Shown: positions 2,287 through 49,613 of the stretch, in pieces
Position numbering within the stretch: the stretch's first letter is position 1
How the letters are laid out: each line of letters starts with the position of its first letter
IMG/VR virus record: IMGVR_UViG_3300027967_000093
Length of the DNA stretch: 64,000 nucleotides
Reading direction: 5' to 3' (one strand)
Origin: a virus
Made by a program: the position numbers and the translations under genes
The notes under the pieces: generated by a model
What the model was told of the DNA's origin: nothing
The model's database searches: none
Seen by the model: only the letters and a program-made list of their open reading frames with translations

Positions 2287-2294
2287 TATTTATA
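2287..2294 (-). promoter_or_regulatory. T4-type late promoter TATAAATA upstream of gp2
   Basis: Exact TATAAATA on the minus strand about 25 nt upstream of the gp2 ATG. gp55 is present in the window. Confidence 0.8.
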
Positions 2295-17582: not shown

Positions 17583-20500
17583 ATGCCAAACACGTTTACA
17601 GAACAAACATTCAGATCAACCTATAAGGATGATTATAAGGATAGTGACAACTATTCTCGTATTCTGTTCAATGCAGGTCGAGCACTACAGGCGCGTGAAC
17701 TTACGCAACTACAGACTATCATTCAATCAGAGATTAAACGGTTTGCAGATAACATCTTCCAGAAAGACGGTGTTCCTGTTTCTGCCGGTGGTGTTTCAAT
17801 CAACAATTCATATGCTTTCATCAAGATTTCAAACGACCAGAATAACTCGTTTGATGATGTATCTGCACTGAAAGGTGTTGTACTTACGGGTGCAGACTCT
17901 TCAATTAAAGTAAAAGTTTATGAAGCAGTTGCTTCAGAAAACGGTGACCCTGATACCCTGTATGTACAATACACCGAGAACCCTAATACAATTAGTCCTA
18001 GTACGACATATAACTCAGCCACACGTGTAACTCCAGGCGAGATTCTGTCGAACGGTTCTAACATCAATCTTACTGTACAGACCACTAACACTGCTGCAAA
18101 CCCTGCAATTGGTTTCGGTAGTAATCTGTCTATTGGTGAATCACAATTTTATGTTAAGGGTCATTTCGTATTCGTTCCTAAACAAAGTATTTTCCTTGCG
18201 AAGTACGAGAGATCTAAGACCGCTGACCTCGGATTTAAACTTGTTCAAGATATTGTAACTGTATCTGATACTGATACTTTATATGACAACCAGAATGCGA
18301 CACCTAACCGTTCTTCGCCTGGCGCAGACCGTTATCGCATTAGACTTGTTCTTGCAAGACGAGACGAGGTTACATCGGGTGATACCTTTGTATACTTCTG
18401 TCGTGTAGAAGGCGGTGTAATTACTCATCAATTAACTTCTTCTGAAAACTACAATCAAATAAAAGAATTTGTTGCAACTCGCATCAAAGAGATTAACGGT
18501 GACTTCATTAAGAAGTACTGGAAACTTCGTGTAGAGCCCAATGGTTCAAATGCGAACTCCACTCTTATGTTGCGTATCGACCCAGGCACTGCATACATCG
18601 AAGGTAAACGTGTTGCGACTACTGTAACTCGAAGTCTTCCTATTCCAAAGGCAACAGACACTATTACTCGTGACGAAGAACAGATTGGTCTGGACTACGG
18701 TAATTACTACTATTGGGATAGTGGTGTTGGTATGTTAGATATTGATACTGCCGAACAGGTAGTATTGTATGCAGGATTTGATGGCGCAGACTCTGCGATT
18801 GGTACTGCAAACATTCGTGCAATTACCGAAGGGACTAATGCACTTCGTACTGGTGGATATACGTATACTCGTTCTCCATTATATAAAGCACACCTATTCA
18901 ACATACATAGAACCAACTTTAACCACACTTTACGTGACGTTAAGTCGGTCAAATCGAACACCAATACCCACTTAATTAACCTTGTTCAGGTTGCGGATAG
19001 TAGTGCCTATATAGGTTCTGTTCTTCACGAACCAAAACAGAATGCACTTATCTTTGATACTCCGTTAAGTAGACCAAAAGGTTTCACTGACGTATCAATG
19101 ACGTTTATGAAGAAGTATAACTTCACTGCTGATGGGGAAAACCATACTATTACCCTGACAGACTCAGGTGAAAGTTTCAACCGTGAAGCGGACATCTTAG
19201 TTGCATCTGCTACCGAGTTTGCACCTGCGGGTGTATCTGGTTCAATCCAGTCCGGTAATAAAGACATCGTATTCTCTGGTCTGACCAATGGTGTCGCATA
19301 CGAAGCAATCGTCTTTGTACGCAAGACTAATGCATCGGTCAAAACTAAGACTCTGACCGAAACTACTATCACTACGTCTCTAGATTCTAATGGTGCTGGT
19401 ATTAAAGGTATCAACCTAAGTCAGTCTGACATTTACTCTATCGAACGTGTAAGAAAGAATGACTCTGACGGTGAAGATATCTTCCCACACTTCATGTTCG
19501 ATGCAGGACACCATGTAACTCACTATGACGATGGTCGTCTGGTTTGGTCTGGTGGTGGTATCGATAGTGCTAACCAACCTATATTCGTTCGGTTTAAATA
19601 CTTCGAACACTCGGTAAGTGGTCAGTTCTTTGCGGTTAACTCTTATGATGGTCAATTAGACTATCTTGATATCCCCGCACAGAAACTAGACAATGGTAAC
19701 AAGGTTTCATTGCGTGACGTAATCGATTTCCGTCCTGCAACCGATGGTAGTGGTTCATACTCAGGTGGAACAGTTTGTCCTCTACCTGTCCCAGCTGACA
19801 CTATCGAAGTGGATGCGGAATACTACTTGCCTCGTGCAGACAGATTGGTTATTTCTAAAGATGGTGAAATCCGTTATATTACTGGTTCATCTTCACTGAA
19901 TCCAAAATATCCTGATGTACCTGTTGATTGTATCGACCTTTATAAAGTAAGGTTGAACCCTAACACGTTACATTCCCAAGATTTAAAAACTACCCTTATT
20001 CCACGTAAGGGTTATACCATGGCAGACATTAATAAGTTGGAAGAGAAGGTCGACCGTCTCGAAGAGATGACCACACTTTCACTTCTTGAACTTAATACCA
20101 AGTTCCTTTCGGTACTTGACTCTGCGGGTAATGACAGAACTAAGGCTGGTTTCTTTGTAGACAACTTCAAGAACCACCAACATTCACAAACTACTTCTCC
20201 GGAATATCGTGCTGCAATTGACAAACGTTCATTGTTGTTACGTCCTACTTTCGTAGAAGACTGTGCTGACTTGTTCTATGACAGTGGAAATGCAGGTCAA
20301 CTTAGAACTATTAAGAAAGATGATTTCTTGATGTTGGACTATAGTAATGTTGCATATGAGTCACAAGAACTTGCATCTAGTACTGAAAACCTTGCACCAT
20401 TCTTCGTACCGCAAACAGTTGGTAACTTACTTCTTTCTCCTGAGACTGACTCTTGGAAAGAAACCGATAAGATTGGTGAGACTGTTGTTGGTCGTTCTAC

Positions 20501-23709: not shown

Positions 23710-26613
23710 ATGGCACGTCCTTTTACAAAACTAAGTGACTCGTTCAAGATTTTACGGGATAATGTTAATACTATCTCGTATAATGTTGGTGACCCTGACG
23801 ACCTAAACACCTATGGTGATAGTGATGTCGTTCAGGCAATCAATGAAATCGAACGTGTCTTCGATGCCTCTGCGGGTGAAATCCTATATCCTACTGGTGC
23901 AGCAGGTGAAACTCAAACTCGACTCCTTATTAGTACCGCACAATCAAGTGGTACAGATATCCAGTTTAATGTTGGTGCAAACTTCAACATTGATGCAGTA
24001 GGTGACATCAACTTAGATGCCGGTGGCGCGAACATCAACTTCCTTGATGATTCTTCTAACCGTATTGCATTTACTTTGGGTGCGACTAACACTGTTGGTG
24101 TGACTGGTGTACTTGACCTTGATGTCTCTTCTAATCTCGACATCGATGTGTCTGGTAATACGACTCTTACCTCCACCGGCACAACTACTATCGAAACAAC
24201 TACATTCACTGTAGACGCGTCCGGAGATGTAATCCTTGACGCAGACGGTGGAAATGTAACATTCAAAGATGGTGGAACTACAGACTATAACTTTGCAACT
24301 GATGGTACAGTTTCTCGTACCGGAGACTTGACATTTGACATCTCGGGTGATATAATCCTTGATGCAGATGGCGGGAACATTACATACAAAGATGGTGGAA
24401 CTGATCGTATAGCATATATGATGGGTACAACCAACACTGCGGCTGTAACTGGTAACCTTACCTATGACGTTTCGGGTGATATTGTACTCGATGCGGGAAC
24501 CAATAACGTAGACCTAAAAGGTGCAGGAACTACTCGTTTCGCATACGGACTTGGTACGTCTAATACCCTAGACGTTACAGGTAATCTTACACAAACTGTC
24601 TCAGGTAACTTCTCAGACAGTGCTGATGGTACTTATCATATAGGTGCGACTGGTCTTGTAGATGTTATTACTTCTGGTAACTTCGACACTACCTCGAACC
24701 AACAAACACATTCTACCACTGGTAACTTCACTATCGATGCCGGTGGTGATATTATACTAGATGCGGATGGTGCGGATATAAGTTTCAAGGATGACGGAAC
24801 TACTCGTTTCCAATATAACCTTGGTACAACTAACACTATCACCACAACTGGTGCTATCGACCACAATGTATCAGGTGGATATGACATCGATGTTAACGGT
24901 GCGTTTGAAGTTGATGCGAATGGTTCCATCACTATGGATGCGACTGGTGACTTTGATATCAAAGGTTCTGGTACAACTCGTTTTGCATATGGTCTTGGTA
25001 CATCAAACACATTAGACGTTACAGGTAATCTCACTCAAACAGTATCAGGTAACTATTCTGATTCTGCTAATGGCACATACCACATTGGTGCGACTGGTGC
25101 TACCGACATTCAAACGTCTGGTACATTCCAAACTAATACTGGTGCACAGACTCATACTGTTACTGGTGCATACACCGTTGACGCATCTACTGATATTGTC
25201 CTTGATGCAGATGGTGCAAATGTCACTCTGAAAGATGGGGGTGCGACTCGATTCGACTTCCAAATGGGTGCGAACCAAGAACTAGACATTCCTACTGGCA
25301 ACTTCACTTTAGATGTTGCGGGTAATATTGTACTAGACGCAGACGGTGCGAACATCGACTTTCAAGACGGTGGTGTTGCACGATTCGAATATGGTCTAGG
25401 TACAACTAACACTTTAGATATCTCAGGTAACTTAACTCAGTCTGTATCGGGTGACCACACTGACAGTGCAGATGGTATTCGTACTATCAATGCAACTGAC
25501 GGTCTTACTTTCGAAGCAACACACGGCCCACTAACGGTTACTGCAAGTGGTAATGGTACTGTGTCGGTAGGTGGTAACTACCTAGTAGATGCAGAAGGTG
25601 ATATTACACTTGATGCAAACGGTGCAGATATTGTATTTAAAGATGCGGGTGTTACAGAACTAACATTCAACTTAGACTCTGACCAAACTATTGAAGCACG
25701 AAATAGTCTGATTCTTGATGCCGACCAAGATATTACTCTTGAAGCGAACGGTAAAGATATCAACTTCAACGATGGTACTCAGAACAACTTTGTATTCAAC
25801 CTTGGTACTAACCAAGAAGTTGATGTTGTAGGTAATCTAACTGTAGATGTTGCGGGTGATATTACACTTGATGCAGGTGGTACTCAGGTAAACCTTGCAG
25901 ACGGAACCGCAAACCGTATTGTTCACAACCTTGGTACAAACCAAGAGATTGACTATACTGGTGACCTTACCCAAGACATTGGTGGTGATTTAATCATTGA
26001 TGTTGATGGTGGAGATGTTTACCTCAAAGATGCAGGTACTCAGTTCGGTCGTCTGAAGAATACTAGTAACCAACTAGACATTTACTCTGGCTCTACTCTT
26101 GCACTTGAGATGACTGCGAATACTATCGAAGTTCATAACCGTGCATTGTTCTTAGACTCTGCACTAGATACTGTTGCATCAAATGTTGCAGGTTCTATTA
26201 ATGAAATTCATACAGAACTCGATTCTGCATCTGGTGAGATAGAGTCTGTCAAAGATACTATCGAACAGATGTTGAAAACATTTGATTCGGGTGGAACTAG
26301 TGCAAACATTTCTGCGACTGGTATCTCTACTCTCAATACTCTCGATAAGACTTTTGTTGGTGGTATCAACGAGATTGATACTCGACTAGATTCTGCGGTT
26401 GATGAAATTCAAGTCGTAAAAAGTAGAGTCACAAGTAATGCCACAGACATTCTAAACTTGAGTAATCGAGTTGGTCAGTTGAATACACTTGACAGTTCTG
26501 CGCCAGGCAACTTCTTCGAAGGTATAAATAACGATAGTATAGTAAACGCGATAAACGAATTAGCAAGAAGAACTGTCCTAATCTATGATGAGAACGGTAC
26601 TCTTCTGAACTAA
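23710..26613 (+). CDS. Fibre-like virion protein with about 12 DI.LDA[DGN]G..[IV].FKD repeats
   Basis: Repeated beta motifs and four [AGS]INE[IL] motifs. Ends IYDENGTLLN. Confidence 0.75.
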   Translation: MARPFTKLSDSFKILRDNVNTISYNVGDPDDLNTYGDSDVVQAINEIERVFDASAGEILYPTGAAGETQTRLLISTAQSSGTDIQFNVGANFNIDAVGDINLDAGGANINFLDDSSNRIAFTLGATNTVGVTGVLDLDVSSNLDIDVSGNTTLTSTGTTTIETTTFTVDASGDVILDADGGNVTFKDGGTTDYNFATDGTVSRTGDLTFDISGDIILDADGGNITYKDGGTDRIAYMMGTTNTAAVTGNLTYDVSGDIVLDAGTNNVDLKGAGTTRFAYGLGTSNTLDVTGNLTQTVSGNFSDSADGTYHIGATGLVDVITSGNFDTTSNQQTHSTTGNFTIDAGGDIILDADGADISFKDDGTTRFQYNLGTTNTITTTGAIDHNVSGGYDIDVNGAFEVDANGSITMDATGDFDIKGSGTTRFAYGLGTSNTLDVTGNLTQTVSGNYSDSANGTYHIGATGATDIQTSGTFQTNTGAQTHTVTGAYTVDASTDIVLDADGANVTLKDGGATRFDFQMGANQELDIPTGNFTLDVAGNIVLDADGANIDFQDGGVARFEYGLGTTNTLDISGNLTQSVSGDHTDSADGIRTINATDGLTFEATHGPLTVTASGNGTVSVGGNYLVDAEGDITLDANGADIVFKDAGVTELTFNLDSDQTIEARNSLILDADQDITLEANGKDINFNDGTQNNFVFNLGTNQEVDVVGNLTVDVAGDITLDAGGTQVNLADGTANRIVHNLGTNQEIDYTGDLTQDIGGDLIIDVDGGDVYLKDAGTQFGRLKNTSNQLDIYSGSTLALEMTANTIEVHNRALFLDSALDTVASNVAGSINEIHTELDSASGEIESVKDTIEQMLKTFDSGGTSANISATGISTLNTLDKTFVGGINEIDTRLDSAVDEIQVVKSRVTSNATDILNLSNRVGQLNTLDSSAPGNFFEGINNDSIVNAINELARRTVLIYDENGTLLN

Positions 26614-29495: not shown

Positions 29496-29510
29496 ATAGA
29501 CTTATAAATA
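29491..29510 (+). promoter_or_regulatory. Tandem late promoters CATAAATA (29491-29498) and TATAAATA (29503-29510)
   Basis: Both lie directly upstream of the GTG start at 29540. Confidence 0.75.
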
Positions 29511-29539
29511 CAAACATTAAGTCTAAGAGAGTATGATCT

Positions 29540-34452: not shown

Positions 34453-34917
34453 ATGAGTTTTAAACGATGGATGGATAATGCATTTTGGGAAAATCCTGAG
34501 AAATCCAAAGTCAATTGTATCCTTGAGATGGAAGATGATATTGGTCGTCAAACCAAACAAGTGATGTTATTGAGTCGTCTTAATAAAGACGGTAGTGAAA
34601 ATGAAATGTTCGCTGAAGTTGTGGGTGCACTAGGTGAAGAATCTATTGACCGAAATACCGAAGACCGTAAAGTTCGGAAAGCTGCAGAAATCGAAGAACG
34701 TAAACAACGTGACACCGAACATGCACGTGCACGTAAACTCGAAGAACTTTTTAACTACAAACTAGAAGTCTTTGAGACAGAAGAGATTAAAAATTCCAAG
34801 AACCGGAAGTTAAAGGCAAAACTTAGACGCGCAAAATCTAAAGTTGAAGTTAACCTATATGCAATGATGTTGTTACAAGAAGCACTTGAGGCGAATGAGA
34901 ATGTCGGAGAAGAGTAG
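34453..34917 (+). CDS. Hypothetical protein (charged helical C-terminus)
   Basis: 154-aa ORF with an RBS. No recognised motif. Confidence 0.75.
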   Translation: MSFKRWMDNAFWENPEKSKVNCILEMEDDIGRQTKQVMLLSRLNKDGSENEMFAEVVGALGEESIDRNTEDRKVRKAAEIEERKQRDTEHARARKLEELFNYKLEVFETEEIKNSKNRKLKAKLRRAKSKVEVNLYAMMLLQEALEANENVGEE

Positions 34918-35635
34918 AGGTTATGTACTTGTTGCATCTAACAAGATAAACTTCTATCGATATGCAATTAACCTTGCAGAGTCGATTCTAGATTATTATG
35001 AAGACGCAAAGATTACATTGTTTTGTGAACCATGGATGTTCGAGGAACAACACCGAGAACTATTTGATAATGTCGAATGGTGCAGTAGTCACTATCGTGC
35101 TAAACTCGAAGGTATGGCTCGTTCTCCTTATGACCTGACTATGTACCTCGATGTTGATATGGAATGTGAACACGAAGACATTGCGATATGTTTCGATGAA
35201 CTGGAGAGACGCGAAGAGGATATTCTATTCTCTGAACTCACAGATGACCGCGAGTATGTCTATGCAGAACGTCAGTTTGATACACCTGAAGGTAAGACTA
35301 AATTTACCTTGTGTGGGGGTGTCGCTCTATACGACATGACTAAACCTATCGTAAGAGAGTTTATGTCTGACTGGGAGATGCTCACTAAAGACCAAATGGA
35401 TGGTAATTGGTGGCCTGACGGATACATCGATAGTCTCAAGTCATGGGATCAGTTTAGTCTCTGGTGGTTGACTGAAAGAGAAGATAAATACAAAGACCTC
35501 AAGTACGGTATACTTGAAGACGATTTGCGTTGGAACTATTATAACGCATTCAACTGGGCAATCACCAAACCGACTGGCCCTGTTGTTATTCGACACTACT
35601 CTTGTGGTTTAGATAAAGACGGATATATCATATGA
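34901..35635 (+). CDS. GT-A fold glycosyltransferase / nucleotide-diphospho-sugar transferase
   Basis: SPYDLTMYLDVD (DxD), GGVALY, WDQFSLW, RWNY and VIRHY motifs. The likely start is ATG 34901. Confidence 0.8.
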   Translation: MSEKSRGYVLVASNKINFYRYAINLAESILDYYEDAKITLFCEPWMFEEQHRELFDNVEWCSSHYRAKLEGMARSPYDLTMYLDVDMECEHEDIAICFDELERREEDILFSELTDDREYVYAERQFDTPEGKTKFTLCGGVALYDMTKPIVREFMSDWEMLTKDQMDGNWWPDGYIDSLKSWDQFSLWWLTEREDKYKDLKYGILEDDLRWNYYNAFNWAITKPTGPVVIRHYSCGLDKDGYII

Positions 35636-36327
35636 GTTATATGCAGGACATCCCTGTTAAGAATAGGGACTTATTAAAAATATTGAATCGATATCGAGAC
35701 TTCTTGATGAAGGATGTCGATTCTTTCAAAGAGACATTTCACCTACAATGTCAAGAAGATGCAAGTAATAGACATTACTGGGCAGGTGACACTCACCTAC
35801 AAGAAATTCTTGACCAAGGTACTCGACACGAAGGGTTTCCGGATTCTATCTACGGGTACGAACTTGGAGTGCATAGAAAAGACCACGAGTTTTATGAACG
35901 TGGTGTGCATCCATCTATCCGCAAAGACAGGACTGCGGAACTTGCGTGGATGCAACAAGAGATTCTTGGATGGTTGGGAGTAAGACACAATGCACTTACC
36001 GCATTCTATCCACCTGGCGGTTATATCTCTTGGCACAATAATGCGAACGCCCCCGCATACAATCTAATATTCTCATGGTCAGAGACTGGAGACGGTCAAT
36101 TTAATTATGTTGACCCTACCACCAAAGAAGTCGTGGAGATGAAGGATAAACAAGGTTGGAACTGTAAAGCCGCATACTTTGGACATTATGAAGAACCCGA
36201 ACGACTATTCTACCACTCAGCAAAAACTGACTGTTGGAGAGTGACGGTATCATTCATTTTCGATACCTCGGAATTGTCCTCGGTTATCAGAGATGATTTA
36301 ATCGAAGATATAATGTCTGAAGAGTAA
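35632..36327 (+). CDS. 2OG-Fe(II) oxygenase-like (double-stranded beta-helix) protein, copy 1
   Basis: YPPGGYISWHNN ... FYHSA.TDCWRVTVSF, i.e. H-x-N...H...R. Confidence 0.65.
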   Translation: MSYMQDIPVKNRDLLKILNRYRDFLMKDVDSFKETFHLQCQEDASNRHYWAGDTHLQEILDQGTRHEGFPDSIYGYELGVHRKDHEFYERGVHPSIRKDRTAELAWMQQEILGWLGVRHNALTAFYPPGGYISWHNNANAPAYNLIFSWSETGDGQFNYVDPTTKEVVEMKDKQGWNCKAAYFGHYEEPERLFYHSAKTDCWRVTVSFIFDTSELSSVIRDDLIEDIMSEE

Positions 36328-36401: not shown

Positions 36402-36761
36402 ATGGCAGATTACGAAGATTTTACAATTGACCAAGGCGCAGATGTTGCAATCGAATTGCACCTTCAGGAAACTGATGGTTCTAAAAAAGATTTGACAGCA
36501 CACTCTGCGTCTGCGAAAATGAAAAGAAGTTACAACTCAGTTGACGATAACGATATCGTAACTTTCACTACTGCAATAACAGATCCTCCCGAAGACGGTA
36601 TTCTTGTACTCGCTCTCACCAATGCTGAAACCGATTTACTGAACCCTAGAAACCGATATGTCTATGACGTAGAACTGTCATTTGATGACAGTGATGGAAA
36701 TACAATCATCGAAAGAATACTGGAAGGTAAGATTAAAGTCACACCTTCGGTAACAAGGTAA
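36402..36761 (+). CDS. Conserved small virion protein (Ig-like fibre anchor)
   Basis: IDQGAD, YVYDVEL and RILEG.I.VTPSVTR motifs. Under a late promoter. Confidence 0.7.
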   Translation: MADYEDFTIDQGADVAIELHLQETDGSKKDLTAHSASAKMKRSYNSVDDNDIVTFTTAITDPPEDGILVLALTNAETDLLNPRNRYVYDVELSFDDSDGNTIIERILEGKIKVTPSVTR

Positions 36762-36765
36762 TCTA

Positions 36766-36990
36766 ATGGCAGTCACGGTATCCCTCAGAGGAAAAACGAA
36801 AGTAAAACGCGTTGTTGTTGGTAAACCAATAAGACGTATCAACACTACACAAGGTAATATCAACAATCTTGCAGGAGTGGATACTTCAGGAGTAACTGAT
36901 GGTGCTATTTTAGTTTATAACGAATCCACAGAAAATTTCGAAGCGACACCCACATTAAACAATCAAGAAGTTAACGGAGGCCAATACTAA
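36766..36990 (+). CDS. Small virion/fibre-associated protein
   Basis: L..VD......GAILVYN.....F motif. Ends NGGQY. Confidence 0.65.
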   Translation: MAVTVSLRGKTKVKRVVVGKPIRRINTTQGNINNLAGVDTSGVTDGAILVYNESTENFEATPTLNNQEVNGGQY

Positions 36991-38993
36991 TGGCATCATT
37001 ATTAAGAATAAAAAGATCGGGAACTGCGGGAGACCCGACCACACTTGGTCAAGGTGAATTAGCATATTCATACTTAACCGATAATGGTTCCAATGGTGGT
37101 GACCGATTATATATTGGTACTGGTACTGAAATCGCAGGTAATGCAGTTAATCACGAAGTCATTGGTGGTAAATTCTTCACCAGTATGTTAGACCATGCGA
37201 AAGGTACACTGACCCCGAACAGTGCACTTATCGTAGACGCTAGTAGTAAAATTGATACTATTAATGTTGGTAGTAGCAACTTCATCACACTTTCAGATGG
37301 CACAATTACCTCTGTTAGTGGATTGACCTTTGACACCAACGGTAACGAAATTGACTTTGGTAATGTGGGACTTCATGGTGTCGCAACTCCTACTCACGAT
37401 TCTGATGCTGCGAACAAGGCATATGTTGATGCACTTGCCGCAGAATTCCTCGCAACCGCAGCTGCGGATAATGGTTCGTTTACCTTTATTCCTTCGATAG
37501 AGTTTATCACTTATGCCGGTGGTAATGCGATTACTACCATTGCAGACAGTGGTACCAATACAATCACCTTTGACTTAGATGTCACAGGTGTGACCGCAGG
37601 AACATACGGTTCACAAACCGCAATCCCATCATTCACGGTTGACTCTGATGGTCGATTGACTGCTGCGTCCGAAGTTAGTGTTGCAACCAACCTGACTATT
37701 AACAGTGACCCAATCAGTCTCCTAGATTCAGATGTAACCTTTACCGCAACAGGTAATGGTTTAACTCTTACTTACACCAGTTCTACTAACACGATTGATT
37801 ATGCAATCGATGATGCGACCACTTCTTCGAAGGGTGTTGCACAATTCCTTAGTGCAGACTTTGGTGTATCTTCGGGTGAAGTATCCCTGAATGATGCGGT
37901 ACTAAAAGGTATCAGCACTGATTCTGGTGATGTAACTCCGGTAACCCATGCATTAACTATCGGTGGTAACTCAGTACAGGGTATCGTCACAGAAGGAACT
38001 GGTTCGACTATAACTGTCGATGCATTGAATGCAACTTACACCCAACGTGGTGTTGCCAAATTCCAGTCTGCGGACTTCACACTTAACTCGGGTGATGTAA
38101 GTCTTGATTCTGCGGTAGTTAAACAAATCACTACCGATGACGGTAATGTTCCTATCACTGGTCACATGATATCTATCCTTGGTGGAGAAGGTATCAATGT
38201 AAACCATGCAGGTACTAACATCTCGGTATCTGGTGAAGATGCAGACGGTAACAACAAAGGTATTGCGTCTTTCGAAGACACTGACTTCACAATCTCGAAT
38301 GGTCATGTAAGTCTGAAGGCTGGGTCTGTTGCAAATGCTGACCTCGTCAATGATGATATAACTATTGGCGATAATGCGGTTGCACTTGGTGCGACTGTTA
38401 CTGACCTTACCGGACTTACTGGTGCGACTGTAGATAACATCCGTATTGACGGTAATAAGATATCTACTAATACTGCAACTAATGTACTTGTACTTGACCC
38501 TAAGAGTGGAGACTCAAACGGTGGACAGGTTCTTGTACTGGGTGACCTTGTTGTACAGGGTACTCAAACAATCATTAACTCGACCACTATGTCGATTAAT
38601 GACCTTAATCTTGTCCTTGCAGATAGTGCCGCAGATGCGACTGCTGCGAATGGTGCAGGTATTACGGTCAATGGTGCGGCTGCGACAATTACATACTCTG
38701 TTGCAGGAGACAAGTGGAACACCAATAAAGACTTAGATGTTGGTGGTGAGATTTACCGTAATGGCGTGGTTCTTAGTGAATATATCGAAGACCACCTTGG
38801 TAACAGTTTCTTTGCCGCAGGTGAAGGACTTGATATCACATACGGTTCTTCACAGGACAGTGATAACACTATTGTATTCGCTGCCGAGATTGCAAGTTAT
38901 TCCAACAAAGGTGTTGCGTCTTTTGATTCAGACCAATTCACCGTGACATCTGGGTTCGCGACTATCTCGACCCTTGATGGCGGAACATACTAA
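36990..38993 (+). CDS. Tail/whisker fibre with an Mtd_N-like N-terminus
   Basis: RIKRS....P..L.QGELAY N-terminus, DAANKAYVD, four A....[KR]G[VI]A.F repeats, ends DGGTY. Confidence 0.8.
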   Translation: MASLLRIKRSGTAGDPTTLGQGELAYSYLTDNGSNGGDRLYIGTGTEIAGNAVNHEVIGGKFFTSMLDHAKGTLTPNSALIVDASSKIDTINVGSSNFITLSDGTITSVSGLTFDTNGNEIDFGNVGLHGVATPTHDSDAANKAYVDALAAEFLATAAADNGSFTFIPSIEFITYAGGNAITTIADSGTNTITFDLDVTGVTAGTYGSQTAIPSFTVDSDGRLTAASEVSVATNLTINSDPISLLDSDVTFTATGNGLTLTYTSSTNTIDYAIDDATTSSKGVAQFLSADFGVSSGEVSLNDAVLKGISTDSGDVTPVTHALTIGGNSVQGIVTEGTGSTITVDALNATYTQRGVAKFQSADFTLNSGDVSLDSAVVKQITTDDGNVPITGHMISILGGEGINVNHAGTNISVSGEDADGNNKGIASFEDTDFTISNGHVSLKAGSVANADLVNDDITIGDNAVALGATVTDLTGLTGATVDNIRIDGNKISTNTATNVLVLDPKSGDSNGGQVLVLGDLVVQGTQTIINSTTMSINDLNLVLADSAADATAANGAGITVNGAAATITYSVAGDKWNTNKDLDVGGEIYRNGVVLSEYIEDHLGNSFFAAGEGLDITYGSSQDSDNTIVFAAEIASYSNKGVASFDSDQFTVTSGFATISTLDGGTY

Positions 38994-39053: not shown

Positions 39054-42000
39054 ATGTCTACAACTTTTAGACTGAAGCGAAGTGCTGTCAAGGGTAAAGC
39101 ACCCACGACATCAAATATAGAACTAGGCGAACTGGCCATCAATACAAATGATGGTCGTCTTTTTTTTAAAACAATTGATAGTGCATCTTCCAGTTCAGTA
39201 GTAACACTTCGAGAGGTTTCTGGCGGTACGGGTATAACCGAAACCGCAGGGGAAATCTCTATCACCAATACTGGCGTATCTGCCGGAAGTGTTGGTTCAT
39301 CAACCTCAATTCCTGTATTAACAGTTAATGCACAAGGTCAAATCACTGCGATTGACAGTGCAACTGTTGCGGGTGTTAATGCATTCACCTTTGATTCTGC
39401 AAGTGCGACTCTTAATATATCCACCGCAGATGGTGGTTCTTTTAATGCACGTATTGGATTGTCTTCTTTTTCTACTTCTGATTTATCAGAGGGGACTAAC
39501 TTATATTGGACTACTGCTCGTGGCGAGAGTATGTTCGATACTAGACTTGGAACCAAAACAACAGACGACCTAACTGAAGGTTCGTCTAATCTTTATTACA
39601 AAACAACTTATTTCGATTCGGACTTAGGGGATAAAACCACCGATGACCTGACACAGGGTCAGACTAACCTCTATTATGATTCCGATAGAACTATCACTAC
39701 TGCACGTCATGCAATCAGTGCAACAGGTAGTATCGCATATAATGCAACTACTGGTATAATCTCCTATGAAGAACAACCTTATAGTGGGTTTGATTCTGAC
39801 TTTGGTCAGAAAACAACTACTCAATTAACCGAGGGAGATAACCTCTACTTCACTACCCAACGTGCACGTAATGTATTGTCGGTTCAGAATCCTAGTGGTG
39901 ATGGAAGTCTTGCATATGATAGTGCAACAGGGGTATTGGTTTATACTGGCCCAAGTGCAAGTGAGACTCGTGCACACTTCTCTGGTGGAACTGGAGTAAC
40001 AATCAGCAATGGTGAAGTTGCAATTGCACAGTCTGTCGGAACAACCGATGATGTTGTATTCGGTAAGGTAACTGTTGACTCTGCACAAATCTCTTGTTTA
40101 CACTTGGACAAACTTCCTGACGCACCTAACAGTCTGCGTGGATTATTGTATTATGATTCAGACCCTCAGAAAGGTCTGTCTTTCATTCCGACAACCAATG
40201 AGTTGGTCGAAGATGTAACTATCAACTTAGGTCAAGAAACATTAATATATGTTCATAACTTGACTGGTGCACAGATTAATAACGGTCAAGCAGTTTACAT
40301 ATCCGGTGTTGCGCATGGTGCGCACCCTCAAGTAACTCTTGCAAAGGCAGATGCCGCATCTACTGCAAGTCCTATCGGTCTTGCGACTATGGACATTCCT
40401 GATGGTGCGCATGGTTATGTAACTAAAGTTGGTTTGGTTCGTGATGTAAATACTACAGGTATGACTGCGGGTGCAACTGCATATCTATCAAAAGACTCTG
40501 CGGGTGAGTGGAGTACAACTGAAGTATCTGTTGACAGTGGTTATCCTACTCACTTGGGTACAGTACTAACTGTCGGTGCACAAGGTAGTATCTTAGTTAA
40601 CGTAGAAAAAGAACACTTCGAGTATCTACGTGTTCAAGACAAGATTATTACACACGATCTTGTAGCGCCAGATATCTACGGTTCGCATATTCACTTTGAT
40701 GGTAAATCGCCAGGATACTATGAAGAGGGTCAGGTTTACTACGATTCTGCGAACGGTGCACTTGTAGTTAAGAATGATGTCGAAGACGTTACTCTACAGG
40801 TAGGTCAAGAAGAATGGATTCGAGTTTATAACAACTCTGGTTCAACTATCATAAATGGTACACCTGTTTATCTGTCTGGTGAAGTGGGTTCGGTTCCTTC
40901 TATTGCTACTGCCGATGCAACAGAAGCAACTTCCGCAGTAGGTCTTGCGACACATGATATCACCAATGGTAGTATCGGTTACGTCACTACTCGTGGTCTT
41001 GTTGCTGATATTGATACACAGAACTTGACTGTTGGTGAAAAAGTACACGTTGCGGTAGGTGGCGGGTTAACTACAACTGCACCACAATATCCTTACTATC
41101 CAACCGATATGGGCATCTGTCTGATTCAAGATAGTGCACTGGGTTGTGTATACGTTGATGTTATTGACCACACGATGGAAACTATTCGTGTAACTCAAGA
41201 CGCACGATTCGATGCAAACGTGACCGTTGGTGGTAACTTAAACATTCTTGGTGTCACAACCGAAGTTCTTTCGCAGTCTCTTACAACTAGTGGTAACTTA
41301 CTTCAGTTACTTGATGGTGATACTGTTGGTACTGCATATCAGAGCAGTGGTGGCCTAAACGATGCGACTTTCAAGGGTAAGTATCTGGGTGACAGTGATG
41401 TATTCTACTTTGTCCGTATGGTCTCTGTTGATTCTGCGGGTGTTGGTGACACAATCGAGTGGGGTATTTCCGACTCTGATGCGATGTCTTATGGTTCACT
41501 TGCAGGACTATATGGATATGGTACAGGATTTGATTCTGCGAATGGTCAAACAACTTGGAATCTGAAGACTGACGGTCTAACTGCACCTTTACGTAATGGT
41601 CTATCAATTCAGTTTATTAACTTGTCTGGTCACGATAGTGCAGACCTTTGGTGTGCACACCCAACAGAACTTAATCTTGACTTGGGTCTTATTGGTAACT
41701 ACAACCAACAAAACGAACCCCTAAAGTATGCGGGTGTTGTGCGTGACGCAACAGATGAACGTTGGAAATTCTTTGACGCATATCCTGCCGCAAACGTTGA
41801 CTCCTCTAGTTCTCAGTTCGATATTAACTTTGACTCTGCATCTCTTGCTGATGTTCAGTTTGCTACTGCATATGGTAACCTGTCAGGTAATGCAACTTCT
41901 GCGACCTCTGCGGTTCAACTTGCAAACTCTAGAAACTTCTCGTTGACCGGAAACATAACTTCGGCCGCAATTGGATTCAATGGTACTGGTAATGTTAGTT

Positions 42001-42476
42001 TAACAACAAGTATTGCAAGCAATGTCATCACCAATGCGATGATTAATGCAACTGCGAATATCGCAGACACTAAACTTGCAACTATTTCGACTTCAGGTAA
42101 AGTACAGAACTCTGCAACTACTGCGACTTCTTCTAATACTGGTTCGACAATTGTTGCACGTGATATTTCTGGTAACTTTACTGCGGGTACTATTACTGCA
42201 AACTTAACTGGTGATGTTACTGGTACTGTGTCAAGTCTGTCTAACCACACATCCACAATTCGTGGGGTAATGGTTGCGGGTTCGGGTATTGCATATGACT
42301 CTGCATCTGGTGTTATTAGTACTATAGAGACGTACTCAACTCCAACCGAACTATTGACCGCAATCAAAACCGTGGACGGTGCGGGTTCTGGATTAGATGC
42401 TGACACACTAGATGGACAACAAGGTTCACATTACAGAATTAACGTGTATAACTCTTCGGGTACACTACTTAACTAA
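39054..42476 (+). CDS. Long tail fibre-like protein with an Mtd_N-like N-terminus
   Basis: LKRSAV.GK.P......GELAINT.DG.LF N-terminus, four T..L.[EQ]G..NLY repeats, a duplicated domain (DVT...GQE..I.V.N..G..I.NG..VY.SG), and C-terminal GSGLDADTLDG. Confidence 0.8.
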   Translation: MSTTFRLKRSAVKGKAPTTSNIELGELAINTNDGRLFFKTIDSASSSSVVTLREVSGGTGITETAGEISITNTGVSAGSVGSSTSIPVLTVNAQGQITAIDSATVAGVNAFTFDSASATLNISTADGGSFNARIGLSSFSTSDLSEGTNLYWTTARGESMFDTRLGTKTTDDLTEGSSNLYYKTTYFDSDLGDKTTDDLTQGQTNLYYDSDRTITTARHAISATGSIAYNATTGIISYEEQPYSGFDSDFGQKTTTQLTEGDNLYFTTQRARNVLSVQNPSGDGSLAYDSATGVLVYTGPSASETRAHFSGGTGVTISNGEVAIAQSVGTTDDVVFGKVTVDSAQISCLHLDKLPDAPNSLRGLLYYDSDPQKGLSFIPTTNELVEDVTINLGQETLIYVHNLTGAQINNGQAVYISGVAHGAHPQVTLAKADAASTASPIGLATMDIPDGAHGYVTKVGLVRDVNTTGMTAGATAYLSKDSAGEWSTTEVSVDSGYPTHLGTVLTVGAQGSILVNVEKEHFEYLRVQDKIITHDLVAPDIYGSHIHFDGKSPGYYEEGQVYYDSANGALVVKNDVEDVTLQVGQEEWIRVYNNSGSTIINGTPVYLSGEVGSVPSIATADATEATSAVGLATHDITNGSIGYVTTRGLVADIDTQNLTVGEKVHVAVGGGLTTTAPQYPYYPTDMGICLIQDSALGCVYVDVIDHTMETIRVTQDARFDANVTVGGNLNILGVTTEVLSQSLTTSGNLLQLLDGDTVGTAYQSSGGLNDATFKGKYLGDSDVFYFVRMVSVDSAGVGDTIEWGISDSDAMSYGSLAGLYGYGTGFDSANGQTTWNLKTDGLTAPLRNGLSIQFINLSGHDSADLWCAHPTELNLDLGLIGNYNQQNEPLKYAGVVRDATDERWKFFDAYPAANVDSSSSQFDINFDSASLADVQFATAYGNLSGNATSATSAVQLANSRNFSLTGNITSAAIGFNGTGNVSLTTSIASNVITNAMINATANIADTKLATISTSGKVQNSATTATSSNTGSTIVARDISGNFTAGTITANLTGDVTGTVSSLSNHTSTIRGVMVAGSGIAYDSASGVISTIETYSTPTELLTAIKTVDGAGSGLDADTLDGQQGSHYRINVYNSSGTLLN

Positions 42477-43251: not shown

Positions 43252-44994
43252 ATGGCAACAAATCCTTGGATTTCACAATCAGTACGTGCTGAACAGAATT
43301 TATATGAGGACATAGTAATAGAGTCCTTACAATTCTATGGTCAGGACGTATACTATTTACCTCGAGAAATTGTTAACAAGGATAAAATATTCCTTGATGA
43401 CGTTCCTTCGCATTTTTCTGACGCATATAAAATCGAGATGTATATCGAGAATGCAGAAGCGTTTGGAGGAGAGGGTGACCTCTTCTCTAAGTTTGGTGTG
43501 GAGTTGCGTGACCAAGCAACATTTGTATGCGCACGTAGACGATGGAAGAAACTCATCGGTGACAAACTAGATGCATATAACTTCCGTCCTCGTGAAGGCG
43601 ACTTAATCTATCTTCCTTTATCACAATCAATCTTTGAGATATATAAAGTAGAGACCGAGACTCCGTTCTATCAGTTGAGTCAACTACCTACATTCAGACT
43701 TCAATGTGAATTATTCGAATATAATGACGAAGACTTTGATACCGACATTGAAGGTATCGATGACGTTGAAGAAGAATCTGCATACCAGTACAAACTGGTT
43801 ATGGAATCTCCCGCAGCATCTACTGCAACTGCATTATCACGAATTGATGTTGATGGTGCGGTAGTTGGATTTGATGTTCAGACTACAGGTAGAGGTTATG
43901 TTACTGCACCCACATTAACTATTGGTGCAGCTTTAGGAAGTAATTCTAAGTTCGGTAATGCGTCACTTAACGTGACTCGTGGTCGAGGTTCTGAGGGTAC
44001 GTATGCGCAGACAGGTGCGCATGGTAGTATCGAAGCATGGGTATATATTAACAACCTTCCTTCATCTGGTCAAGATATTATTTTCAAAACAGGTGGTGGA
44101 GACGGTGACCTAACAAATACCTATTACTGGGGTGTTGACCCAACGGGTCAATTAGTGTATAGTAGAGGAGATAACCAAGGTGGGGGTGTAACAAATCTCA
44201 CCGGAAGTTCAATCTTATTCGAAGAAGATACTTGGCACCATATTCTTATTGCGGGTGTAGGAACTAACAACCTAGTAATCTACTTCGACTTCGTAAGAAA
44301 ACTGGACGCGACCCTCGCAGGTGTCACTTTCAACTGGGTGAGTGATGAAGGTTACTCGGTAGGTGCAACTGCTGCACGTACTGTTGATGGTATAGACTGG
44401 ACTGCAATGGACGGATTCATTGATGAGTTCCGTGTACAAGTCGGTAGTAAAGCACAGATACTCGAACCTAGATATGCGACTGTAGGTAATGATACTACTC
44501 TTACCATACAATCAATAGAGTGGGAAGATGACGTAACTTACGATGCGAAACTACTACACTTCAATGCAATAAGTGCAACTGCAACCACAACAATCACAGA
44601 TGGTGGTATACTAGAGTCAATAGCACTTACCGAATCTGGTATATACTATGATGAAGAACCAATAGTAACTATTGATGCACCTTCTGCCGGTGGTAATTAT
44701 CAACGTAATACTATCGTAAGTCAAGACCAAGGGACATTCACCATGAAAGGTGAAGTTGCGAAATGGTCTGACTCGGACAACACGTTGTACCTAGTACACG
44801 TTGGTTCGGACGATGGTGTATATCATACGTTTAATACAAGCAATGCGGTAGTCAGTGAGGATGCGTCCTATGCACCTTCTTTGGTACAGGAATTGCAGAA
44901 CATACAACTGGCTGCATAGAACGATTTCTTCGATGACTTTGAAGGGGACTTCCTTGATTTCAGCGAGAGTAATCCATTCGGAGATATATCATAA
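43252..44994 (+). CDS. gp14: Neck protein gp14 with an inserted LamG-like domain; in-frame TAG at 44917-44919 precedes the conserved C-terminus
   Basis: EQNLYED...ES...YGQDVYYLPRE and RP.EGDLIY.P motifs. After the TAG the frame continues NDFFDDFEGDFLDFSESNPFGDIS* to a TAATG overlap with gp15. Confidence 0.88.
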
Positions 44995-45776
44995 TGTTAG
45001 GAAATTGGTTTTATCATAAGAGGGTAAGAACTGCGGTATCGGTATTCGGTTCCATGTTTAATAACATCTATGTACTTCGTCAAAACTCTTCGGGAGAGAC
45101 TATCTCTCAAGTTAAGGTACCTTTGTCCTACGCCCCCAAGAAGAGTTTCATCGAAAGATTAGGTGAGATGGCTAATGGTGAGGAAGCAGAACGCAGGGTT
45201 GCAATTAAACTACCTCGTATGTCGTTCGAGATTACTTCTATGACATATGACCCAGTGAGACAACTACCCAAGATGAATTCATTCTCATCTACGGTAGGTG
45301 GTGACGCGACTAAAAAGAATCAATTCTATTCTTCTGTACCATACGATATTGGGTTTGAGGTTAATATCTACGCAAAGTCTCAGGATGATGCATTGCAGAT
45401 GGTCGAACAGATTCTACCTTACTTCAATCCTCAGTACACGATATCGGTCAAACCATTCAACACAGACCACCCAGAAATCTCCGAAGATGTACCTATTATA
45501 TTGTCAGGTGTTTCTTTCAGTGATGGTTATGAGGGTTCTATCGGAGACCGAAGAACAATTATATACACTCTGTCATTCAACATGAAGATTAACTTTTATG
45601 GCCCGATGTCCACTCGTGGTGTTATCCGTGAAGTTAATAATAACCTATATATTTTATCGGGTGATAGTGACAGGGAAGATTTCCAACTACGTTTACAAAC
45701 CACACCGACACCTGTTGGGGTTGGTGCTGACAGTGACTATGGATTCAGTACTGTATACTTGGATAGTGAATTTTAA
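44994..45776 (+). CDS. gp15: Tail sheath stabiliser / terminator gp15
   Basis: FYH...R..V..FGSMFNNI, KVPLSYAPK, LPRMSFEI and QILPYFNP motifs. Confidence 0.93.
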   Translation: MLGNWFYHKRVRTAVSVFGSMFNNIYVLRQNSSGETISQVKVPLSYAPKKSFIERLGEMANGEEAERRVAIKLPRMSFEITSMTYDPVRQLPKMNSFSSTVGGDATKKNQFYSSVPYDIGFEVNIYAKSQDDALQMVEQILPYFNPQYTISVKPFNTDHPEISEDVPIILSGVSFSDGYEGSIGDRRTIIYTLSFNMKINFYGPMSTRGVIREVNNNLYILSGDSDREDFQLRLQTTPTPVGVGADSDYGFSTVYLDSEF

Positions 45777-47804: not shown

Positions 47805-49613
47805 ATGGCTGTTAAACCCGCATCTCCTCGGATCAATATCAGCGAAATCGACAAAACAGGCATAGTACCTGCGGTCGGTTCATCTGGTGGTGGTTTCGTA
47901 GGTAACTTCCGTTGGGGCCCAGTACACGAAAGAACATTGATTGCAGACGAAACAGGTCTGGTATCAACTTTTGGTGCACCTGACGACACGAACTCAGTGG
48001 ATTTCCATTCCGCTGCGTACTTTCTTAAATACTCACAAACTCTACAGGTTGTTCGCGAGAACAATGGTGGACAGAACGCACACGGTGCAGTAACTAAATT
48101 TGCTGGTGATTCTGACGGTAACTCAATGTTGGTTAATAACCTTGACCATTGGGAAAACTCTGTCAGTTCTGCGGTAGGTGAAGGTGCAGCTGCAACTTCT
48201 TCTGGTACTTGGATTGCAAAATATCCAGGCGAATTGGGTAACGCATTGACAGTTTCTTTCTGTCCTGCCGGAGACTCTGCGAGTGTAGACCACTTTACTG
48301 GTTGGGCATATGCGTCTAACTTCAATGGTGCTCCAGGCACTTCTGCGTATGCAACCAGCAATGGTGCAGCTAACGATGAAGTTCACGTTGCAATCATTGA
48401 CCGTACTGGTGCTATCACTGGTACTGTTGGTTCTGTTCTCGAGAAGTTTGAATACCTCTCTGTTGCACGTGGTGCAGTAACTCCTGATAATTCACCTAAC
48501 TATATCTCTGACGTATTGAACCAAAACTCTCAATACATCTGGAATGGTTACTTCGGTGATGACTCTGCATTCGGTTCCGATTACTTGGATCTGGGTGGAA
48601 ACTGGGGAACTACTCCTGATACCGACACCGCAGTAAACTACGGTCTAGGTACTGGTCTTGTGGACGGTGTTCGCACAGTAAACCTTGGTGGTGGACAAGA
48701 GTCTGCAACTTTGGGTACTGGTGAATTCGCTGAAGGTTACGATCTGTTCGAAGACAAACTCACTACTGAGATTGACTTCCTGATTGCACCTCAACATAGT
48801 TCTGAGGCAAACGGCACTTCTGTAGTAAATGACCTTGTATCAATCGCTGAATCACGTAAAGACTGTGTTGTTATTACTTCAGTAGATAGAGCAGGTGTTG
48901 TGGGTAAGACTGATGCACAGGCACAAACCAATGCAGTTTCGTTCGCGAATACTCTTACAAAATCATCTTACTTAGTAGTAGATAACAACTTCTTCAAAGT
49001 GTTCGATAAGTACAACGATAAGTACATCAACATTCCTGCTGCGTCAAGCACTGCGGGTCTGATGGCTGCTACTGACGTTATCGCAGACCCATGGTATTCA
49101 CCTGCCGGTCAAAGACGTGGTAACTATCGTGGTATTACGGGTATCTTGACGAATCCAAACCAAACCCAACGTGATGCCCTATATAAGGCAGGTGTTAATC
49201 CTATCGCAAACATTCCAGGCACTGGTCTGATTCTGTTTGGTGATAAGACGTTGGAAAGCAGACCTTCTGCATTTGACCGTATCAACGTAAGACGTTTGTT
49301 CATTGCGATTGAGAAGTCAATTGGTGAAGCTGCTAAAAATGTAATGTTCGAATTCAATGACGAGTTTACTCGTGCAGAATTCGTAAACATTGTAGAACCT
49401 TTCCTCCGTAGAGTTAAGGGTCGTAGAGGTATAACTGACTTCCGTGTTGTATGTGATGAAACAAACAACAATCAAGAAGTTGTGGACAATAACCAATTCG
49501 TTGCAAGCATCTTTGTGAAACCTGCACGTTCTATCAACTTCGTTCAATTGAACTTTGTTGCAGTTAGAACTGGTGTAGACTTCGAAGAAGTTGTTGGCAC
49601 GGTAGGAGCATAA
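47805..49613 (+). CDS. gp18: Tail sheath protein gp18
   Basis: SP.I...EID.T, F.WGP, WYSPAG..RG, FDRINVRRLF and FEFNDEFTR motifs. Confidence 0.97.
   Translation: MAVKPASPRINISEIDKTGIVPAVGSSGGGFVGNFRWGPVHERTLIADETGLVSTFGAPDDTNSVDFHSAAYFLKYSQTLQVVRENNGGQNAHGAVTKFAGDSDGNSMLVNNLDHWENSVSSAVGEGAAATSSGTWIAKYPGELGNALTVSFCPAGDSASVDHFTGWAYASNFNGAPGTSAYATSNGAANDEVHVAIIDRTGAITGTVGSVLEKFEYLSVARGAVTPDNSPNYISDVLNQNSQYIWNGYFGDDSAFGSDYLDLGGNWGTTPDTDTAVNYGLGTGLVDGVRTVNLGGGQESATLGTGEFAEGYDLFEDKLTTEIDFLIAPQHSSEANGTSVVNDLVSIAESRKDCVVITSVDRAGVVGKTDAQAQTNAVSFANTLTKSSYLVVDNNFFKVFDKYNDKYINIPAASSTAGLMAATDVIADPWYSPAGQRRGNYRGITGILTNPNQTQRDALYKAGVNPIANIPGTGLILFGDKTLESRPSAFDRINVRRLFIAIEKSIGEAAKNVMFEFNDEFTRAEFVNIVEPFLRRVKGRRGITDFRVVCDETNNNQEVVDNNQFVASIFVKPARSINFVQLNFVAVRTGVDFEEVVGTVGA

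Follow-up and report, generated by a model that had tools for sequence, protein, structure and literature searches.

The tripeptide Asp-Ser-(Ala or Asp), here written DS[AD], is enriched as a trait of one lineage of uncultured marine T4-like phages, in which it occurs at 4-10 times the level expected by chance in the outer parts of the virion proteins. It is described here from a 64,000-nucleotide stretch (the window) of IMG/VR virus record IMGVR_UViG_3300027967_000093, which, as judged from PHROG and Pfam assignments and from synteny, is the morphogenesis half of an uncultured marine T4-like myovirus, and above all from a tail-fibre protein of 1140 residues encoded there. Its sites fall at exposed turns where strands end and at the starts of helices, its enrichment is restricted to the clade, and no enzyme gene co-varies cleanly with it. 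The explanation that we tentatively favour is that DS[AD] is a clade-specific, intrinsic “strand-stop” or turn-cap word, and a recognition site for a modifying enzyme is the possible alternative that has to be weighed most carefully against it.

Occurrence of the tripeptide in the window and in related phages

The 1140-residue fibre, which has no match in Pfam or PDB sequence searches, contains 21 DS dipeptides, 13 of them in DSA and six in DSD, the remaining two being DSS and DSG. These are exactly the hand counts of a first-pass annotation of the window, which had also proposed that only a few such sites would follow from composition, and after composition correction 19 DS[AD] stand against 1.37 expected. 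Shuffled sequences give 1.32 (none of 1000 reaches 19), local composition within 25 residues on either side gives 1.39, and a first-order Markov model gives 5.4, so that overall composition, patches rich in Asp, Ser and Ala, and dipeptide bias are rejected as causes. No other tripeptide of the protein is enriched as strongly as DSA (P = 2e-12); enrichment of FDS, YDS and VDS as well extends the motif to the preceding hydrophobic residue. For comparison, the same protein has eight SD, one NS[AD], and neither DT[AD] nor ES[AD]. Twelve different codon triplets encode the 19 sites, with the TCN and AGY families of Ser codons in background proportion, which places the signal at the protein level and dismisses DNA-level causes such as a GANTC site or a recurrent oligonucleotide. 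The sites had been described as lying in non-repetitive contexts, and this holds only in part; sites 188 and 247 belong to a degenerate repeat of the form F-DSD-[LF]G-x-KTT-x-LTEG-x-NLY[YF], and in each of the pairs 368/564 and 481/693 the two members correspond to each other in a tandem-duplicated domain.

The occurrences that the first-pass annotation gave for the 667-residue and 967-residue proteins, gp8, the C-terminal end of the gp7-like protein, the gp9/10-like protein, the amidase-domain protein, the VrlC-like protein, the sheath and gp15 hold as well (Table 1), as do the single site in gp23 and the near-absence outside the virion, the large terminase, UvsW, gp46, gp47 and gp45 having none. 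Virion proteins other than the 1140-residue fibre together carry 47 DS[AD] against 13.45 expected (P = 9e-13), or 32 against 11 when all three fibres are set aside (P = 2e-7), and the non-virion proteins of the window carry two against 2.0 expected. In a ranking of all 8000 tripeptides over the 31 virion proteins that are not fibres, first place goes to DSD and third place to DSA. The paralogous fold-back fibres of 955 and 1615 residues, both within 26628-34387, are at expectation (two against 0.87 and one against 1.15, respectively), and the motif is thus not general to fibres. Unlike the 955-residue fibre of the window, 955-like proteins in related contigs are enriched 8.7-fold. The proposal that the motif is selected at the protein level and concentrated in exposed or peripheral parts is supported; these parts are the fibres, the baseplate periphery, the gp18 insert and the C-terminal extensions of gp14 and gp15, and interior and replication proteins lack the motif.

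The closest deposited relative of the window phage is Phage C48C1 (Kyanoviridae), with about 70% nucleotide identity across gp20-gp23, followed by Methylophilales phage Melnitz and cyanomyoviruses. All 120 of the 120 database homologs of the 1140-residue fibre (36-95% identity) are enriched, with a median observed/expected ratio (O/E) of 9. Across 77 related viral contigs the enrichment is 8.5-fold in fibres, 14.5-fold in gp15, 9.4-fold in a fibre-assembly protein, 5.7-fold in gp14, 5-fold in proteins like the 667-residue fibre and 4.3-fold in gp18, while unrelated neighbouring open reading frames (ORFs) of at least 300 residues carry 72 sites against 10.6 expected, and the parts of long homologs left unaligned to the query carry 144 against 14.3 (O/E 10.1). 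The enrichment of gp14, gp15, gp18 and the assembly protein lies in the top 0.2-0.7% of tripeptides of similar expectation; by the same comparison, interior and non-virion proteins do not avoid the motif significantly, and the zeros of gp17, gp20 and gp19 are not unusual. In G005, a complete genome of the clade (146.6 kb, with terminal repeats), the virion module holds 59 sites against 15.25 expected and the rest of the genome 10 against 13.2 (O/E of about 0.76). C48C1 is intermediate, since only three of its fibre proteins are enriched and its giant proteins of 3347, 1663 and 1480 residues have no site. Cyanomyovirus ACG-2014d (about 9 against 11), Melnitz (12 against 11.6) and pelagiphage HTVC008M (12 against 12.7) carry no more sites than expected, and this includes the fibres, gp14, gp15 and gp18.

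The sharpness of the tripeptide is seen in a profile pooled from 284 fibre-type proteins of the clade (328,000 residues), in which O/E is 9.3 for DSA and 7.4 for DSD, and 14.5% of all Asp residues fall in DS[AD]. Of the sites, 56% are DSA and 44% DSD. As homologs share sites, a recount accepted only contexts whose 16 flanking residues are less than 50% identical; DSA then ranks first and DSD fourth of 2362 tripeptides, with 538 contexts together, and their only peers in sharpness are YTR and GNY, which are repeat words of the neighbouring fold-back fibres. Over the whole clade DSA and DSD stand 5-6 times above the median, NSA, DTA, DGA, DAA and DPA are at or below it, and DDD and DGD reach O/E values of 0.1-0.2 and 0.7-0.8.

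The baseplate wedge protein gp8, which is vertically inherited, allows the turnover of sites to be followed. The gp8 proteins of the window phage and of G005 are 39% identical and have four sites each, mostly in different alignment columns, and these arose by point changes in existing loops, such as TSG to DSA and DTE or TTK to DSD; four outgroups have none or one. All 47 of the 47 unique clade orthologs (45-84% identity) carry two to seven sites, against 0.58 expected, distributed over 13 columns, and in distinct columns per expectation DSD ranks 19th and DSA 51st of 1247 tripeptides. The number of sites in gp8 is maintained by selection while their positions move, which agrees with the sequon-like selection proposed at first pass.

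Structural setting of the sites

An AlphaFold2 (AF2) model of the 1140-residue fibre, for which 40 homologs were used, has low quality in the shaft and is confident in three beta-domains (residues 360-520, 555-705 and 755-910). The first two are predicted to share a capsid-decoration or cement fold, for which Foldseek returns the base of phi29 gp8.5, the Pam3 cement protein, HFTV1 and P21 SHP, with E-values of about 1e-3 for the best matches and 0.16 for P21 SHP; on this model, a head-decoration module would have been reused in the tail fibre as a tandem duplication. The same decoration-like domain is found as a single copy in gp61 of roseophage CRP-6 and in fibres of Nitrincola, Pseudomonas and freshwater phages.

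When secondary structure is assigned to the model by DSSP, the Asp of the motif is at a strand end or at most three residues past it in 11 of 19 sites, and five of these form textbook hairpins (LAY-DSATG-VLVY, LYY-DSD..., VYY-DSANG-ALVV, LIQ-DSALG-CVYV and IAY-DSASG-VIST). Helix starts are the second setting: D209-S210 of the fibre directly precede the helix 211-220 of the model, and three sites of the 967-residue protein, of the form L-DSA-xxE-I, stand at the starts of predicted coiled-coil helices. Over all 66 virion sites, the preceding residue is hydrophobic in 31 (background 0.31), and Gly follows at position +3 or +4 in 29, with about 16% expected. In 486 non-redundant contexts, Leu, Val and Ile are enriched at -3, -1 and +7, and Gly is 1.6-1.9 times enriched at +3/+4. 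The insert of gp18 that contains its three sites (residues 88-286) corresponds to the outer domains I/II of T4 gp18.

Some sites drift and others are old. Several fibre sites change in homologs to turn-equivalents of the form Y-[ND]-[SNA]-[ASG]-T-G, and the gp15 site ADSDYGF reads ADDDFGF in a cyanophage, which makes it an old structural motif. The gp15 tail of the clade carries three near-invariant sites, and several clade orthologs, in L017, L050, L058, L060 and L071, end exactly in DSA, as their last three residues. Homologous fibre domains occur in five unrelated phages, namely roseophages CRP-6 and CRP-207, Nitrincola 1M3-16, Pseudomonas Rollin and a freshwater podovirus (ctn9Y15), two of which are marine. 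There, YYDSANG is replaced by FYDKAFG or WYDQNKD, and QDSALG by SAAIGG or SHHQVG. Since DS[AD] is missing from these homologous domains, the fold does not dictate the motif; the marine habitat does not explain it either.

Enzyme genes among the fibres and gene order of the window

The minus-strand genes of the window comprise gp26, gp48, gp2 and gp4; the baseplate genes then follow (gp53-like, gp5, gp25, gp6, gp7-like, gp9/10-like and gp8), and after gp8 come the VrlC-like protein, five large fibre-type proteins with a small enzyme cassette, gp13 to gp23 and gp3, and finally UvsY, UvsW, gp55, gp47, gp46 and gp45. Between the UvsW region and gp55 lies a cytidylyltransferase-like ORF (58981-59472; Pfam CTP_transf_like, E = 1e-13), kept in G005 at 67% identity.

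The cassette encodes proteins of 249 and 231 residues. The former is possibly a nucleotide-diphospho-sugar (GT-A) transferase, which it resembles in its protein-atlas lead. The latter is 40% identical to the product of 55912-56541; these paralogs belong to a phage-only family with the fold of 2-oxoglutarate (2OG)-Fe(II) dioxygenases, an unusual H-x-N...H metal motif and a conserved R-x-T; three members of this family occur in C48C1. Of 31 testable clade loci, 27 have the cassette, as does C48C1, and it is absent from six complete non-enriched genomes. Nevertheless, the link between the motif and glycosyltransferase (GT) or oxygenase genes that had been proposed at first pass is not supported, as the cassette is absent from the complete and equally enriched G005, and HTVC008M is not enriched in spite of four 2OG/PhyH genes. 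As the modifier, the fibre-adjacent cassette finds no support, given the same absence from G005 and the similar O/E of fibres with and without it nearby (9.9 and 8.5), and 2OG oxygenases beside fibres are rejected as a predictor, the four genes of HTVC008M being in that position.

In G005 the corresponding slot (L093:725-4038; G005 100722-104041, minus strand) holds, on the opposite strand, genes for a radical-SAM/SPASM protein, a GT8 glycosyltransferase and two unknown proteins, and the place beside the fibre genes looks like an exchangeable enzyme slot. Neither this GT8 protein nor a GT of 226 residues (phrog_1962) is accepted as a distant homolog of the 249-residue protein, as hhalign aligns only the DxD segment, with a probability below 1%. 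The 226-residue GT is the sole transferase in a phyletic profile that asked for genes present in G005 and C48C1 but missing from HTVC008M and from those parts of ACG-2014d and Melnitz that were retrieved, and that returned 20 ORFs, mostly sugar-nucleotide enzymes, auxiliary genes and unknowns. It occurs in three of four enriched genomes (G005, C48C1 and G006) and in none of three complete non-enriched ones, and a search of G004 (87% complete, fibre O/E of 10) did not find it; it is a weak lead. A Sulfotransfer_4 gene is rejected as the modifier because G004, G005, G006 and C48C1 lack it although they have enriched fibres. All these correlations between enzymes and motif rest on very few independent lineages and are confounded by phylogeny.

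The Sulfotransfer_4 ORF of the window (2290-2871, minus strand; Pfam E = 2e-13) lies between gp2, the DNA end protector, and the head-completion gene gp4; no homolog was found in G004, G005, G006, C48C1 or ACG-2014d, and C48C1 has no gene at that position. In the gp20-gp21 gap of G005 (L094:4414-9765; G005 124414-129768), three extra, adhesin-like genes within the head gene block encode a collagen-repeat protein, with six DS[AD] against 0.5 expected, a protein with an Mtd_N domain and a Laminin_G_3/He_PIG/TIG protein. The large terminase of G005 consists of two ORFs (316 and 365 residues, 74-76% identical to gp17 of the window) about 740 bp apart (L093:17437-20227; G005 117437-120227), which suggests an intron, an intein-free split or the insertion of a homing endonuclease.

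Table 1. Proteins, domains and individual sites of the window that bear on the DS[AD] motif (pLDDT, predicted local distance difference test; “expected” refers to DS[AD] counts)
Feature	Coordinates	Strand	Observation
Amidase-domain protein	7729..9699	+	three DSAG in 22 residues (108, 119, 127)
gp7-like protein	14064..15149	+	3 DSD within last 60 residues; 0.44 expected
gp9/10-like protein	15186..16181	+	3 DSA; 0.22 expected
gp8 baseplate wedge protein	16191..17573	+	4 DSD; 0.5 expected
VrlC-like 1963-residue protein	17583..23474	+	6 sites; 1.65 expected; G005 ortholog 11, 1.4 expected
967-residue protein	23710..26613	+	8 sites; 1.4 expected; 3 in repeat SGN[FYH][ST]-DSA-[DN]G
249-residue protein, candidate GT-A transferase with YxDxD	34886..35635	+	protein atlas 0.97 to Nucleotid_trans/GT8 clusters; no Pfam match
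231-residue protein, 2OG-Fe(II) dioxygenase fold (H135-x-N137...H195, R203)	35632..36327	+	pLDDT 93.6; Foldseek AlkB, P4H, PHD2, AspH
Fibre-assembly protein	36402..36761	+	DSD at 96 in 20/26 orthologs
667-residue fibre protein	36990..38993	+	7 sites; 1.2 expected
1140-residue tail-fibre protein	39054..42476	+	19 sites: 13 DSA, 6 DSD
D342-S343-A344 of the 1140-residue fibre	40077..40085	+	D, S invariant in 40 aligned homologs
Two tandem domains of the fibre, predicted capsid-decoration/cement fold (residues 360-520, 555-705)	40131..41168	+	pLDDT 75-93, Foldseek
D368-S369-D370, after YY, opens first decoration-like domain	40155..40163	+	D, S invariant; unrelated phages FYD---- or WYDQN
D481-S482-A483-G484, DSAG turn closing domain 1	40494..40505	+	nearly invariant (>=90%), G484 invariant; unrelated phages SP--AG, SADTAG, SPSTAG
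D693-S694-A695, hairpin LIQ-DSALG-CVYV of domain 2	41130..41138	+	D, S nearly invariant (>=90%); unrelated phages SAAIGG, SHHQVG, SHATQG
gp14 with C-terminal extension	43252..44919	+	DSD at 507 in 25/26 orthologs
gp15	44994..45776	+	sites 224, 246 (ADSDYGF) in C-terminal tail past conserved core 4-219
gp18 sheath	47805..49613	+	3 sites (102, 157, 253), all in non-conserved insert 88-286

Explanations of the motif and comparison with known systems

To the reading of DS[AD] as a strand-stop word we give a probability of about 0.4. A beta-strand with hydrophobic residues at -3 and -1 would end in the Asp, which would cap the following backbone amides, as an Asx-turn or N-cap, and act as a charged gatekeeper; the two helical positions of the turn would then be taken by the Ser and the small or acidic residue, a Gly one or two residues further on would close a tight hairpin, and the next strand would begin about 5-7 residues later. 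In coiled-coil segments, the same word would begin helices. Working intrinsically and, as we infer, with no need for a trans-acting factor, it would punctuate and stabilise the solvent-exposed, beta-rich and fast-evolving parts of the virion, such as fibres, baseplate periphery, outer sheath domains and neck extensions, having probably spread within one marine T4-like lineage by module shuffling together with convergent point substitutions in loops. This reading is favoured because of the location of the sites, their flanks, their drift to turn-equivalents, the existence of old sites such as that of gp15, and the lack of an enzyme that tracks the motif; structural words can also be as sharp, given that YTR and GNY rank alongside DSA and DSD. 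Several observations nevertheless weigh against it. The sites do lie at strand C-termini and in hairpins closed by Gly, but the motif does not go with the fold in other lineages: in HTVC008M, Melnitz and ACG-2014d, virion proteins just as rich in beta-structure carry about the expected number of sites, and the fibre domains of the five unrelated phages (31-47% identity) keep the loop-closing Gly and do not show DS[AD] at any of about 20 aligned sites. The core is also sharper than turn propensities predict, with pooled O/E values, against 9.3 for DSA, of 1.4 for NSA and 0.1 for ESA at the first position, 0.3 for DTA, 0.1 for DTD, 1.0 for DGA and 0.2 for DPA at the second, and 2.4 for DSS, 1.1 for DSG, 1.0 for DSM, 0.8 for DSI, 0.7 for DST, 0.5 for DSV and 0.2 for DSL at the third. 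The flank preferences are weak over the 486 distinct contexts, and the turnover in gp8 points to a clade-wide selective agent over inherited structure. The sequon reading is possible, though it too falls short of being probable: a clade-specific cytoplasmic enzyme, of phage or host, would attach a sugar or another O-linked group to the Ser, or hydroxylate the Asp, thus decorating the exposed virion surface, and selection would keep the number of sites as their positions drift. The density kept through turnover in gp8 accords with it, and so do the sharp three-residue core with weak flanks in 538 distinct contexts, the scatter over at least ten unrelated virion protein families with non-virion proteins at expectation, the restriction to a clade and not to a fold, and the exposure of the sites. 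Enzyme genes do stand among the fibres, GT-A-like and 2OG-fold in the window and GT8 and radical-SAM/SPASM in G005, GT8-rich fibre clusters are known in pelagimyophages (PMC7029224), and the 226-residue GT has the suggestive distribution described above. Against a sequon, there is no direct evidence of modification, none of the candidate genes (the cassette, the 226-residue GT or the sulfotransferase) tracks the motif cleanly through the enriched genomes, the near-cognates DT[AD], NSD and ESA are depleted and not neutral, several sites do not vary within a globular domain or represent structural motifs of old standing, and the avoidance in interior and non-virion proteins does not exceed that of comparable tripeptides. 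To these points it may be added that we know of no phage precedent for such a sequon.

The other explanations carry far less weight. Cation-binding turns, which had been offered as an alternative at first pass, are improbable; the Asp carboxylate and Ser hydroxyl, repeated around the three-fold axis of a fibre or joined by the second Asp of DSD, would bind Ca2+ or Mg2+ of seawater and stiffen exposed loops. The location in turns fits this idea, DSDG and DSDxG resemble loops of the DxDxDG type, and fibres are trimeric, so three Asp/Ser pairs could meet on the axis; on the other hand, the dominant form, DSA, offers a single acidic ligand at 56% of the sites, sites are found as well in gp8, gp15 and gp18, which are not known as trimers, DDD, DGD and DxD variants are not enriched, and the marine phages CRP-6, CRP-207, HTVC008M and Melnitz share the habitat without sharing the motif. 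That the host belongs to the Bacteroidota and that its general O-glycosylation system uses these sites, a link also drawn at first pass, is very unlikely. DSA does conform to the sequon D-(S/T)-(A/I/L/V/M/T) of that system, which uses Thr as well, accepts A/I/L/V/M/T (and S/G/F/C) at the third position and acts on exported substrates; however, DT[AD] (0.1-0.3) and DS[ILVT] (0.2-0.8) are depleted here, 44% of the sites are DSD, which the sequon disallows, and assembly of T4-like virions is cytoplasmic. Less credible still is that the enrichment is an artefact, whether of composition, of low-complexity stretches, of a DNA-level motif or of repeats with a common origin: a few sites do lie in degenerate repeats or duplicated domains, and pooled homolog counts are not independent, but the shuffle, local-composition and Markov nulls fail, the distinct-context ranking and the distinct-column test remove shared ancestry, the codons are mixed, and homolog segments that do not align are just as enriched. 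The rest of the weight is left to other roles, such as a chaperone-binding or partner-binding motif.

Tail fibres and baseplate peripheries set the host range of marine phages and the survival of their particles at sea, and they are the least understood of marine-phage proteins. A sharply bounded tripeptide whose copy number is selected on exposed regions of many unrelated virion proteins offers a concrete handle that can be tested. Should the sequon reading be right, phage virions would gain their first defined modification sequon, and the many orphan GT, 2OG and radical-SAM genes of the host recognition clusters of marine myoviruses would be reassigned. If it acts intrinsically, it would be a compact and unusually specific hairpin word, perhaps of use in annotating and engineering beta-rich fibres, and one lineage would have a private structural “dialect”. 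On both readings, DS[AD] can serve as an inexpensive sequence marker of the clade and of exposed loops in its proteins.

Hairpin words shared by unrelated folds are already known, some examples being the Asp-box (BNR repeat), S-x-D-x-G-x-T-W, and the 4:6 loop of the GB1 type, DDATKT or NPATGK. DS[AD] resembles them in placing an Asp at a strand end, in the tight turn closed by Gly and in its occurrence in many unrelated proteins, as seen at site 481 (S-x-D-S-A-G-x-W) and in the fibre hairpin Y-DSATG-V, and we take the turn-equivalents to which fibre sites drift to match the 4:6 loop. The known words tolerate Asn or Asp, vary in their middle residues and are spread over many lineages, whereas DS[AD] is sharper, clade-specific and subject to a turnover that keeps the number of sites. 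The DxDxDG calcium loop is characterised by at least three acidic or oxygen ligands within the loop, a feature that DS[AD] does not have.

The glycans of mycobacteriophage virions reportedly sit on C-terminal Ser/Thr-rich stretches and not on a defined tripeptide. With phage GT genes and the modification of surface proteins in the cytoplasm, these phages represent the mechanistic class to which DS[AD] would belong if it is a sequon. The account of this phage-encoded virion glycosylation in PMC12801897, citing Freeman et al. 2023 (see also PMC11256854), names no defined tripeptide and describes glycans shown by experiment on capsid and tail-tube proteins, whereas a glycan on DS[AD] is a prediction of the sequon reading.

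The O-glycosylation sequon of the Bacteroidota, D-(S/T)-(A/I/L/V/M/T) with an extension to S/G/F/C at the third position, uses Thr freely and acts only outside the cytoplasm (PMC8729774, PMC8550257; also PMC12871550). Both motifs have three residues with an Asp directly before a hydroxyl residue, and both are short, easily gained, and enriched or avoided according to protein class. The Bacteroidota system differs in accepting Thr, in a third position that is hydrophobic or small and never Asp, in being directed to exported proteins, and in being host-encoded within one phylum; DS[AD] is limited to Ser and to Ala or Asp and belongs to particles assembled in the cytoplasm, and any glycan on it is hypothetical.

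The closest parallel in gene order is the host recognition cluster of pelagimyophages and cyanomyophages, which extends from VrlC to gp14 and in which fibre genes are interleaved with GT8 and radical-SAM genes, the GTs being read as modifiers of the host O-antigen (PMC7029224). Although that study reports no motif and the cultured cluster member HTVC008M is not enriched in DS[AD], the layout of the window (VrlC, fibres, the GT-like/2OG cassette, further fibres, then gp13 and gp14) and the enzyme slot of G005 both match this cluster.

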